From a virus: a stretch of DNA of 10,635 bases. This document shows, piece by piece, positions 948 through 6,616 of the stretch. How positions within the stretch are numbered: position 1 is the first letter of the stretch; each line of letters begins with the position of its first letter. The position numbers and the translations under genes are program-made. The notes beneath the pieces were generated by a model. The model saw only the letters and a list, made by a program, of their open reading frames with translations, searched no databases and was not told the origin of the DNA. The stretch is from UHGV virus genome UHGV-1749175; one strand, given 5' to 3'.

Positions 948-973
948 TAATAATTCTCAACTGCCTGAGGGGA

Positions 974-1033
974 GGGGCGGGTCAAATCCCTGCGGCCTGA
1001 CGTCTTCCGGACTGCCCGCCCCATCGTTTTTTT
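974..1033 (+). terminator. GC-rich hairpin followed by a T7 run in the HNH-terminase intergenic region: candidate intrinsic terminator or cos-associated structure
   Basis: GGGGCGGG (974-981) is the perfect reverse complement of CCCGCCCC (1015-1022), followed by ATCG and TTTTTTT (1027-1033). The loop is long (about 33 nt) and the T-run is 4 nt from the stem, so this is not a textbook terminator. In HK97-like phages the cos site lies between the HNH gene and the small terminase gene. Confidence 0.35.
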
Positions 1034-1072
1034 ATACCCGCGAAAAATGAAATTTAACCAGGAGTGCCGCAT

Positions 1073-1567
1073 ATGGCTGGAACGGCGGGGCGTTCCGGGC
1101 GTCGCCCCAAGCCAACGGCGCGCAAGGCGCTGGCCGGAAACCCCGGCAAGCGAGCCCTGAATAAAGATGAACCTGTTTTTACGCCCATCAAAGGTGTTGA
1201 GCCACCGGAGTGGTTCGCTGAAGAAGATCTCCCTCTCGCCACGATCATGTGGCAACTGACAACCAAAGAACTCTGCGGTCAGGGCCTGCTGTGCGTGACT
1301 GACCTGGCGGTACTTGAGCGGTGGTGCGTGGCCTATGAGTTCTGGCGACGTGCCGTGAAAAATATTGCCAGACAGGGCAACACCATCACCGGTGCAATGG
1401 GCGGCATGGTCAAAAATCCGGAGCTGACCGCCAAAAAAGAACAGGAGTCCGAGATGAGCAGCACGGGGGCAATGCTCGGACTCGACCCCAGCAGCCGCCA
1501 GCGTCTGATTGGCCTGGCGGGGAAGAAGAAAGCCACTAACCCGTTTCTGAAAATCATCGAATCATGA
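1073..1567 (+). CDS. Terminase small subunit, P27 family
   Basis: N-terminal [27 protein letters not shown] is the characteristic P27-family small-terminase opening. AGGAG at 1060-1064 sits 8 nt before ATG 1073; the track start at 1064 is a GTG inside that SD and is less likely. Stop TGA 1565-1567 overlaps the start of the large subunit (ATGA). Confidence 0.85.
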
Positions 1568-3297
1568 GCCGGAAATCTTACCCCAACGTAAATGCTGCCA
1601 ATCAGTATGCCCGTGATGTCGTGCGGGGAAAGATTGTGGCCTGCCAGTTTGTGATTCAGGCCTGCCAGCGCCATCTTGATGACCTGATGGCGGAAAAAAG
1701 TAAGTCGTTTCGTTACCGCTTCGACAAGGACCTGGCTGAACGGGCCGCCAAATTTATTCAGCTGTTGCCGCATACCAAGGGTGAGTGGGCATTTAAACGG
1801 ATGCCCATCACGCTGGAGCCGTGGCAGCTCTTTGTGATCTGCTGTGCGTTTGGCTGGGTCAATAAAGGCACCCGGTTGCGCCGCTTCCGGGAGGTGTATA
1901 CCGAAATTCCCCGTAAGAACGGCAAATCGGCAATCTCTGCCGGTGTTGCCCTGTATTGTTTTGCCTGTGATAACGAGTTCGGTGCGGAAGTGTATTCCGG
2001 TGCCACGACGGAGAAACAGGCATGGGAAGTCTTTCGTCCGGCACGACTGATGTGTAAACGCACACCCATGCTGACGGAAGCGTTCGGGATTGAGGTTAAC
2101 GCCTCAAACATGAACCGTCCGGAGGATGGTGCGCGGTTTGAACCGCTGATCGGTAACCCCGGTGATGGTTCATCACCCCACTGTGCCGTGGTGGATGAAT
2201 ATCACGAGCACGCCACCGATGCGCTTTACACCACGATGCTTACCGGGATGGGGGCGCGACGCCAGCCACTGATGTGGGCCATTACCACCGCCGGGTACAA
2301 CATTGAGGGGCCGTGCTACGACAAACGGCGGGAAGTCATCGAGATGCTCAACGGCTCGGTGCCCAACGATGAACTGTTCGGGATCATCTATACCGTTGAC
2401 GAAGGCGACGACTGGACCGACCCGCAGGTACTTGAAAAAGCTAACCCGAATATCGGTGTGTCGGTTTATCGCGAGTTTTTGTTAAGCCAGCAGCAACGTG
2501 CGAAAAATAACGCCCGTCTGGCAAACGTCTTTAAAACAAAACACCTCAATATCTGGGTGTCGGCGCGTTCGGCGTATTTCAACCTGGTGAGCTGGCAGAG
2601 CTGCGAGGATAAATCACTGACTCTTGAGCAGTTCGAGGGGCAGCCGTGCATTCTGGCCTTTGACCTGGCGCGTAAGCTGGATATGAACAGCATGGCGCGA
2701 CTTTATACCCGCGAGATTGACGGTAAAACGCATTACTACAGTGTGGCCCCGCGTTTCTGGGTACCGTATGACACGGTGTACAGCGTCGAGAAAAATGAAG
2801 ATCGCCGGACAGCCGAACGCTTTCAGAAATGGGTGGAAATGGGCGTTCTGACCGTTACCGATGGTGCAGAGGTGGATTATCGCTACATCCTCGAAGAGGC
2901 CAAAGCGGCGAACAAAATCAGCCCGGTCAGTGAGTCACCCATCGACCCTTTCGGAGCGACCGGGCTGTCACATGACCTTGCTGATGAAGACCTGAATCCC
3001 GTTACTATCGTCCAGAACTTCGCCAATATGTCCGACCCGATGAAAGAGCTGGAGGCAGCGATTGAATCGGGACGCTTTCATCATGACGGCAATCCCATCA
3101 TGACCTGGTGTATCGGCAACGTGGTCGGCAAAAACATGCCAGGTAACGATGATTTAGTGAAGCCCGTCAAAGAGCAGGCGGAAAACAAAATTGACGGTGC
3201 AGTTGCGCTGATTATGGCGGTTGGCAGAGCCATGCTGTATGAGAAAGAAGACACGCTGTCTGACCACATTGAGTCCTACGGGATCCGCTCGCTTTAA
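1564..3297 (+). CDS. Terminase large subunit (ATPase/nuclease)
   Basis: 577 aa. Start coupled to the small-subunit stop by an ATGA overlap. Walker-A-like RKNGKS near the N-terminus and acidic nuclease-domain-like stretches (VVDEYHE, DLARKLD). Size and position fit an HK97-type large terminase. Confidence 0.9.
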
Positions 3298-3308
3298 CTG
3301 AGGTAATT

Positions 3309-3491
3309 ATGATCATGCTGATTCTCGCGCCTCTGGTGGGCGTGCTGGGGGCGCTTTTGCTGGCGTATGGTGCCTGGCTGATTTATCCCCCGGCGGGGTT
3401 TGTTGTTGCCGGGGCGTTGTGTCTGTTCTGGTCGTGGCTGGTGGCGCGATATCTCGACCGTACACAGCTGTCTGTCGGCGGAGGTAAATAG
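3309..3491 (+). CDS. Small hypothetical membrane protein (60 aa, two predicted TM helices)
   Basis: Starts 11 nt after the large-terminase stop; GAGG 5 nt upstream of ATG 3309. Two hydrophobic segments ([23 protein letters not shown] and [17 protein letters not shown]). Stop TAG 3489-3491 overlaps the portal GTG start by 1 nt. No family recognised. Confidence 0.45.
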
Positions 3492-6587: not shown

Positions 6588-6616
6588 GGGGCGCGGAACC
6601 GCGCCCCCTGTTCTGA
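6588..6616 (+). terminator. GC-rich hairpin directly after the capsid gene (candidate partial terminator or mRNA-stabilising stem-loop)
   Basis: GGGGCGCGG (6588-6596) pairs with CCGCGCCCC (6599-6607) around a very short loop, followed by the T-containing stretch CTGTTCTGA. The U-tract is weak, so read-through is likely. Confidence 0.4.

Follow-up and report, generated by a model that had tools for sequence, protein, structure and literature searches.

The 125-bp gap between the HNH endonuclease gene and the small terminase gene (terS) in the viral DNA analysed here (a stretch of 10,635 nucleotides, hereafter the window) is very probably the cos site of a prophage of the SfV/SfI type, whose tail is contractile and whose head and packaging genes resemble those of HK97, judging from sequence comparison with phages of that type. 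A sequence-only reading had placed a possible cos between these two genes, and the comparison bears this out: the decamer at 1013-1022 is the mapped cohesive end of phage SfI, and an annotated feature of phage phiP27 and the breaks of four linear phage records agree with it. The virion genome ends of this prophage family are fixed to the nucleotide, with the first top-strand position (+1) at 1023 and a right end of TGCCCGCCCC-3', which is of use for prophage annotation, for the prediction of termini and for reasoning on cos-dependent transduction or hijacking by satellites. The family-wide alignment also gives two candidate protein-binding boxes, namely a site for the P27-family small terminase (TerS) and an upstream box in common with HK97. 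Apart from the ends and these candidate boxes, the site is textbook phage biology.

Gene context and position of the cohesive end

The gap (948-1072) extends from the end of the HNH ORF at 947 to the terS ATG at 1073. The features in and around the gap are as follows.

597-947, + strand: HNH endonuclease gene, a packaging accessory nuclease equivalent to HK97 gp74 and SfV orf53 (PF01844, E 2.8e-16)
969-988, + strand: upstream cos box, consisting of the G-run GGGGAGGGGCGGG (969-981) and TCAAATC (982-988), present in 76 of 76 distinct relatives
989-1008, + strand: variable spacer of low information content and fixed length (within 1 nt across relatives)
1009-1012, + strand: GGAC just 5' of the cut region, with A1011 invariant and C1012 nearly so, also seen in HK97 and phiP27
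1013-1022, no strand assigned: cohesive-end decamer TGCCCGCCCC, the cosN equivalent, from its identity to the mapped SfI cohesive end
1027-1033, + strand: T7 run, a conserved A/T tract at +5 to +11 (alignment of 76 relatives)
1034-1057, + strand: downstream box ATACCCGCGAAAAATGAAATTTAA, candidate P27-family TerS site (cosB equivalent), from conservation
1060-1064, + strand: terS ribosome-binding site AGGAG, 8 nt ahead of the ATG at 1073, read from the sequence
1073-1567, + strand: small terminase gene terS of the P27 family, Terminase_4 (PF05119, E 2.3e-21)
1564-3297, + strand: large terminase gene terL of the HK97 type (PF03354 and PF20441)

The HNH protein of the window is 38% identical to HK97 gp74 across the HNH core and has an HNH endonuclease, 5H0M, as its top sequence match in the PDB, and the sole PDB sequence match of the large terminase (TerL) is the HK97 TerL 6Z6D (E 2.3e-26). 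The start of terS coincides with the annotated start of SfV orf1. The order of an HNH gene, the gap with terS behind it and then an HK97-type terL, as given by the ORFs, the Pfam matches, 6Z6D and gp74, is that of a cos region of the HK97/SfV type. Between terL and the portal gene lies an ORF (3309-3491) for a very hydrophobic product of 60 aa, which is without a Pfam match; the top-scoring hairpin of the terminator scan (3327-3354) falls within this ORF. A second all-G/C 8-bp inverted repeat of the window, GGGGCGCG-gaac-CGCGCCCC at 6588-6607, begins 8 nt past the stop of the major capsid gene (6580) and has no T-run behind it; it resembles a hairpin that stabilises or attenuates the transcript behind the capsid gene.

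In SfI, virion DNA was sequenced by run-off reads that led outward from HNH and terS. Relative to the prophage, 10 nt, 5'-TGCCCGCCCC-3', were missing, and the 10-nt gap was concluded to be the cos cohesive end (PMC3636060). Positions 1013-1022 of the window are identical to this mapped end. Furthermore, a 10-nt 'cos-site', CGCCCGCCCC, is annotated in phiP27 at the position homologous to the window decamer. Four linear GenBank records, those of SfI, Edwardsiella EPP-1, Burkholderia phi644-2 and HK97, break directly after the homologous decamer and start with the base that follows it, which sets +1 at window position 1023. This coincidence of genome ends in the relatives, over four records and the phiP27 feature, is again that of an HK97/SfV-type cos. 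Note that the statement on the SfV cos is based on the account given in the SfI paper, and that on phiP27 on the GenBank feature. Identity to the mapped SfI end, together with these agreements in position, shows, at the level of sequence, both what is cut in the gap and where. As the run-off reads of SfI left a gap and not an overlap, the 5' ends would be recessed, which implies 3' overhangs of 10 nt, as in HK97; by analogy with these two phages the overhang of the window is probably also 3', with the top strand nicked between 1022 and 1023 and the bottom strand between 1012 and 1013.

The region 1-947 of the window is 96% identical to the right end of SfV, which is annotated with lysin, Rz, Rz1 and orf53. 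The lysis genes and the HNH gene therefore make up the right end of the virion genome, and terS comes first at the left, in agreement with the earlier suggestion that the virion ends lie in this gap with the lysis genes at the right end. One replicon-sized record of 43,680 bp from E. coli AH02 (NZ_CP081704.1) ends at the equivalent of window position 1005, where the SfV GenBank record is also arbitrarily broken, and may represent the genome of an SfV-like phage that was deposited as a plasmid.

Conserved boxes and a proposed packaging model

A scan with a TerS profile, in which one genome per species was taken, gave 80 loci from Enterobacterales, Pseudomonas and Burkholderiales with TerS identities from 99% down to about 50%, and 76 distinct sequences were aligned. 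A layout of three boxes upstream of terS is kept in all 80 loci, from E. coli to Pseudomonas and Burkholderia, and consists of the G-run with TCAAATC, of GAC with the overhang, and of the T-tract with CCCGCGAAA. In the upstream box (969-988), which contains the 5' arm (974-981) of an 8-bp inverted repeat discussed below, G976, G977, A985 and A986 are invariant among the 76 distinct relatives. The stretch of about 24 nt from this box to the overhang varies in sequence and is kept in length, and the GAC and the C/G-rich decamer that follow it (1010-1022 in the window) hold their layout across the loci. T1029-T1032 are conserved at 90% or more in the 76 relatives, those lacking the stem included. 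In the downstream box (1034-1057), CCGCG (1038-1042) and the AA pairs at 1044-1045 and 1050-1051 are invariant in the 76 distinct sequences, although the TerS proteins of these relatives are only 50-99% identical. The upstream and downstream boxes each occur once in the window.

Some loci show peculiarities of their own. The TerS of Edwardsiella EPP-1 (L015:48-653) has a 37-aa internal tandem duplication of its N-terminal ELAGNPGKR...PPEW segment, which is absent from all other members of the family. In loci from Photorhabdus, Xenorhabdus, Providencia and Morganella (L036, L039, L040-L056, L059 and L061), there are 40-70 extra nt between the CCCGCGAAA box and the terS start, and this insert tends to be rich in T and to contain a CTTTCACTGTTTTTGAGCACGGGAGGTGCTG segment that recurs. 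The right end of phi644-2 (L018:600-700) has a strong 11-bp G/C hairpin, GCCCGCCCGGCG-tatg-CGCCGGGCGGG, directly upstream of and overlapping the cos G-run.

In the packaging model that we propose, concatemeric phage DNA would be recognised at the gap by a machine of P27-family TerS and HK97-type TerL, aided by the HNH endonuclease encoded beside the gap. The top strand would be nicked behind 1022 and the bottom strand, 10 bp away, ahead of 1013. Each virion chromosome would then carry 10-nt 3' cohesive ends, with TGCCCGCCCC-3' at the right; terS would be its first gene on the left, and the lysis genes would lie at the right end together with the HNH gene. A role of the HNH protein in cos cleavage in HK97-like phages, which the sequence-only reading had mentioned, is documented for HK97 gp74, which stimulates the cleavage of cos (PMC11331095, PMC9410871). 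In HK97, TerS binds at +15 to +29, at a C:G step beside an A-tract, and thereby arrests and positions the motor (PMC11331095, PMC9410871). The invariant downstream box of the 76 relatives spans +12 to +35, on the same side of the cut and at a similar distance, and the box at 1034-1057 together with the T-tract at 1027-1033 is a candidate TerS-binding site of the window. This assignment comes from conservation and from analogy with HK97. Binding of HK97 TerS requires deformability of the A-tract (PMC11331095), and the T7 run of the window may play the corresponding part, by analogy only. HK97 shares the upstream box, TerL and HNH with the window family and does not share TerS; we therefore infer that the upstream box is read by TerL and/or HNH, possibly as a cosQ-like or nuclease-positioning element.

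A more general formulation would be that cos is a modular and deeply conserved signal of three boxes, in which the upstream box and the overhang go with TerL and HNH, and the T-tract and CCCGCGAAA box, almost unchanged from Enterobacterales to Pseudomonas and Burkholderiales, go with the P27-family TerS, the upstream box being cosQ-like or nuclease-positioning and its complementarity to the overhang perhaps functional. We offer this formulation tentatively, as a possibility that we would rather doubt in its entirety.

The inverted repeat and alternative readings of the gap

The gap could be a cos by descent that is now out of use, in a cryptic or defective prophage. Many prophages are defective, and a prophage may hold an intact cos and yet be defective elsewhere. 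The window covers the late region only, with regulatory, replication and excision genes outside the view, and SfV-like prophages are very common in E. coli: the gap sequence is present in 1121 of 5426 complete E. coli genomes (about 20%), and 829 genomes cover at least 80% of the 10.6-kb window. However, every ORF of the late region in the window, from the lysis genes to the tail tube, is intact according to the ORF list and Pfam, and the cos core is the same as in the active phages SfV and SfI at all conserved positions. A cos in disuse is thus unlikely here.

A second alternative concerns the repeat. As had been noticed from the sequence, the gap contains a perfect 8-bp G/C repeat with a long loop, a T7 run behind it and a G-rich motif, and each of these can be read directly: GGGGCGGG (974-981) is the exact reverse complement of CCCGCCCC (1015-1022) with a loop of 33 nt, TTTTTTT stands at 1027-1033, 4 nt past the stem, and the G-rich motif is the GGGGAGGGGCGGG run at 969-981. 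The idea of a stem-loop as a structure was not supported in the comparison with controls. RNA folding of the whole gap gave no unusual stability (MFE -34.9 against a shuffle mean of -35.1, z = 0.06), and RNAalifold found 0 consensus pairs on the 76-sequence alignment. The eight stem pairs were formed in 67.0% of the cells of the alignment, compared with 69.1% after column shuffling (498 of 500 shuffles reached or exceeded the observed value) and with 57-66% when the stem register was slid by 1-3 columns. As the pairing is no better than in these shuffled and slid controls, the complementarity comes mostly from composition. Moreover, the 3' arm of the stem is the cohesive end itself, namely the last 8 nt of the decamer, which likewise does not support a structural stem-loop. 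A perfect 8-bp inverted repeat appeared anywhere in the gap in 222 of 2000 dinucleotide-preserving shuffles (11%), and an all-G/C one in 14 of 2000 (0.7%); the repeat is mildly unusual because a conserved G-run is juxtaposed with a C-rich cohesive end. The 8-bp stem arises incidentally, from a G-run that lies 41 bp away from the C-rich overhang, and is not a conserved hairpin.

The repeat could nevertheless be functional within cos, with the two copies of GGGGCGGG on opposite strands, 41 bp apart, being bound symmetrically by two nuclease copies (TerL or HNH) or extruded as a DNA hairpin that positions the nicks. The rarity of an all-G/C repeat in the shuffles speaks for such a function, as do two Gilliamella loci (L057:592-689 and L058:592-689), in which a different 8-bp complement, TAGGGGGG/CCCCCCTA, joins the G-run to the position of the overhang; this faintly suggests that complementarity of the two elements may be favoured. 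Complementarity within sequences also slightly exceeded that of permuted pairings (5.05 versus 4.88, a value reached by 171 of 5000 permutations), but this result is weak and confounded by relatedness. In free register, however, the longest complement between G-run and overhang has a median of 5 nt and reaches 8 nt in only 6 of the 76 distinct relatives, and the fixed-register covariation test described above was negative. The overhang has also changed without compensation in the G-run in Salmonella sal3 (CCCGCCTC), in Klebsiella phages (CGCCGCCTCA) and in HK97 (CGCCGCCAAA). A weak functional preference for complementarity may exist, and we consider a functional repeat in the above sense to be quite improbable.

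The weakest alternative is a Rho-independent terminator that parts the lysis/HNH transcript from the head-gene transcript, with the 974-1022 stem forming in the RNA and release at U7; although it can claim the perfect 8-bp G/C stem, a local hairpin (974-1022) that folds at -23.4 kcal/mol and a T7 run 4 nt downstream of the stem, the results below make it highly improbable. The loop is 33 nt long instead of about 3-8 nt, and the T7 run starts 4 nt on instead of 0-2 nt after the stem, as a result of which the consensus terminator scan makes no call; the fold of the gap is no stabler than its shuffles and the hairpin is not kept up in the relatives, as seen above. The scan of 500-1600 against Rfam, with E up to 10, gave only a chance-level match within the HNH gene. 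The T-tract is farther off or shorter in ST64B, phiP27 and HK97, and as it is conserved also in relatives that lack the stem, it is independent of the hairpin. The late transcript of lambdoid phages must continue beyond the lysis genes and cos to reach the head genes. The promoter scan found no promoter in or near the gap, and downstream there is no promoter-like site from which transcription of the head genes could restart. The T7 run is part of cos and not the U-tract of a terminator. Another candidate was rejected in the same region: GGGTCAAATCCC resembles the T-arm of a tRNA, but ARAGORN found neither a tRNA nor a tmRNA in 800-1200.

Comparison with known cos systems

For the preferred reading, a cos of the SfV/SfI type, the closest known systems are the serotype-converting Shigella phages SfII, SfV, SfIV and SfI, to which the region 600-1600 of the window is 98.5-99% identical (megablast, phage records) and whose linear GenBank records begin inside the equivalent of the gap. 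In these phages, the cohesive end is TGCCCGCCCC, the G-run, T-tract and CCCGCGAAA boxes do not differ from those of the window, and cos lies between the HNH gene (orf53 or SfI_0066) and terS, with flanking genes of the same 98.5-99% identity. The differences are 4-5 substitutions in the 98-nt core (961-1058 of the window; 94 of 98 nt identical to SfV and 93 of 98 to SfI), which fall in the leading flank, 2 nt past the gap start, in the spacer and, for SfI, at position +1, and leave the decamer and the three boxes unchanged. The host of the window is probably E. coli and not S. flexneri.

The Stx2e phage phiP27 (AJ298298, 21806-21815, misc_feature 'cos-site') has the same three-box layout and the same position of the 10-nt site, and its TerS belongs to the P27 Pfam family and is 50% identical to the TerS of the window. 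It differs in the first base of the decamer (CGCCCGCCCC versus TGCCCGCCCC in the window), in the spacer, and in the box that reads CCCGCGAAATTAAAAA where the window has CCCGCGAAAAATGAAA.

Among the matches listed by a literature search with the decamer and box sequences, nothing relevant was found, and term searches of the accessible literature for an upstream element of cos in HK97-like phages likewise gave nothing. The one point of this analysis that may be new is how deep and how modular the conservation of the three boxes is.

A comparison with the cos regions of HK97-like phages had been suggested, and the likeness to HK97 holds for the upstream half of the site, TerL and HNH but fails for the downstream half and TerS. 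The gene order of HNH, cos, terS and terL is the same, TerL and HNH are homologous, and the upstream half likewise reads as a G-run with TCAAATC, a 24-nt spacer, GAC and a C/G-rich decamer, with a 10-nt overhang in both cases, the 3' polarity of HK97 being probable for the window. Ungapped and in fixed register, the upstream arm of HK97 (-62 to -1) matches a Klebsiella relative at 37 of 62 positions (0 of 20000 shuffles) and the window at 28 of 62 (16 of 20000 shuffles). In contrast, the HK97 decamer is CGCCGCCAAA, the 8-bp inverted repeat is absent, and the HNH gene ends 319 nt before the cut compared with 75 nt in the window. The downstream halves of HK97 and the window family showed no significant similarity in any register. 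A likeness of 'ACCCG + A/T tract' to the HK97 TerS site was considered as homology and rejected, since none of the registers of the downstream halves is conspicuous. No relation between the window TerS and HK97 gp1 was detected by BLASTP (E = 7) or by hhalign of a 22-sequence profile (probability 0.13%), and gp1 has no Terminase_4 match in Pfam. Among PDB chains, the window TerS has no sequence match, and its single-sequence AlphaFold2 model (mean pLDDT 39.5) was unusable.

The cos of lambda (cosQ, cosN and cosB) is alike in outline, as its nicking site lies between an upstream element and a downstream region bound by the small terminase, and as it is placed between the lysis genes and the first head gene and is crossed by the late transcript. 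Lambda cos has 12-nt 5' overhangs, a Nu1/gpA terminase, an IHF site and no HNH, whereas the window has an overhang of 10 nt, which is probably 3', and a terminase of Terminase_4 and HK97-type TerL. The terminase of the window is not of the Nu1/gpA type, and the IHF consensus WATCAANNNNTTR, with up to 1 mismatch, had no match in the gap. With other terminase families, no IHF consensus and another overhang, the site falls outside the lambda cos family. It is a known and ordinary feature, the mapped cos of the SfV/SfI group.
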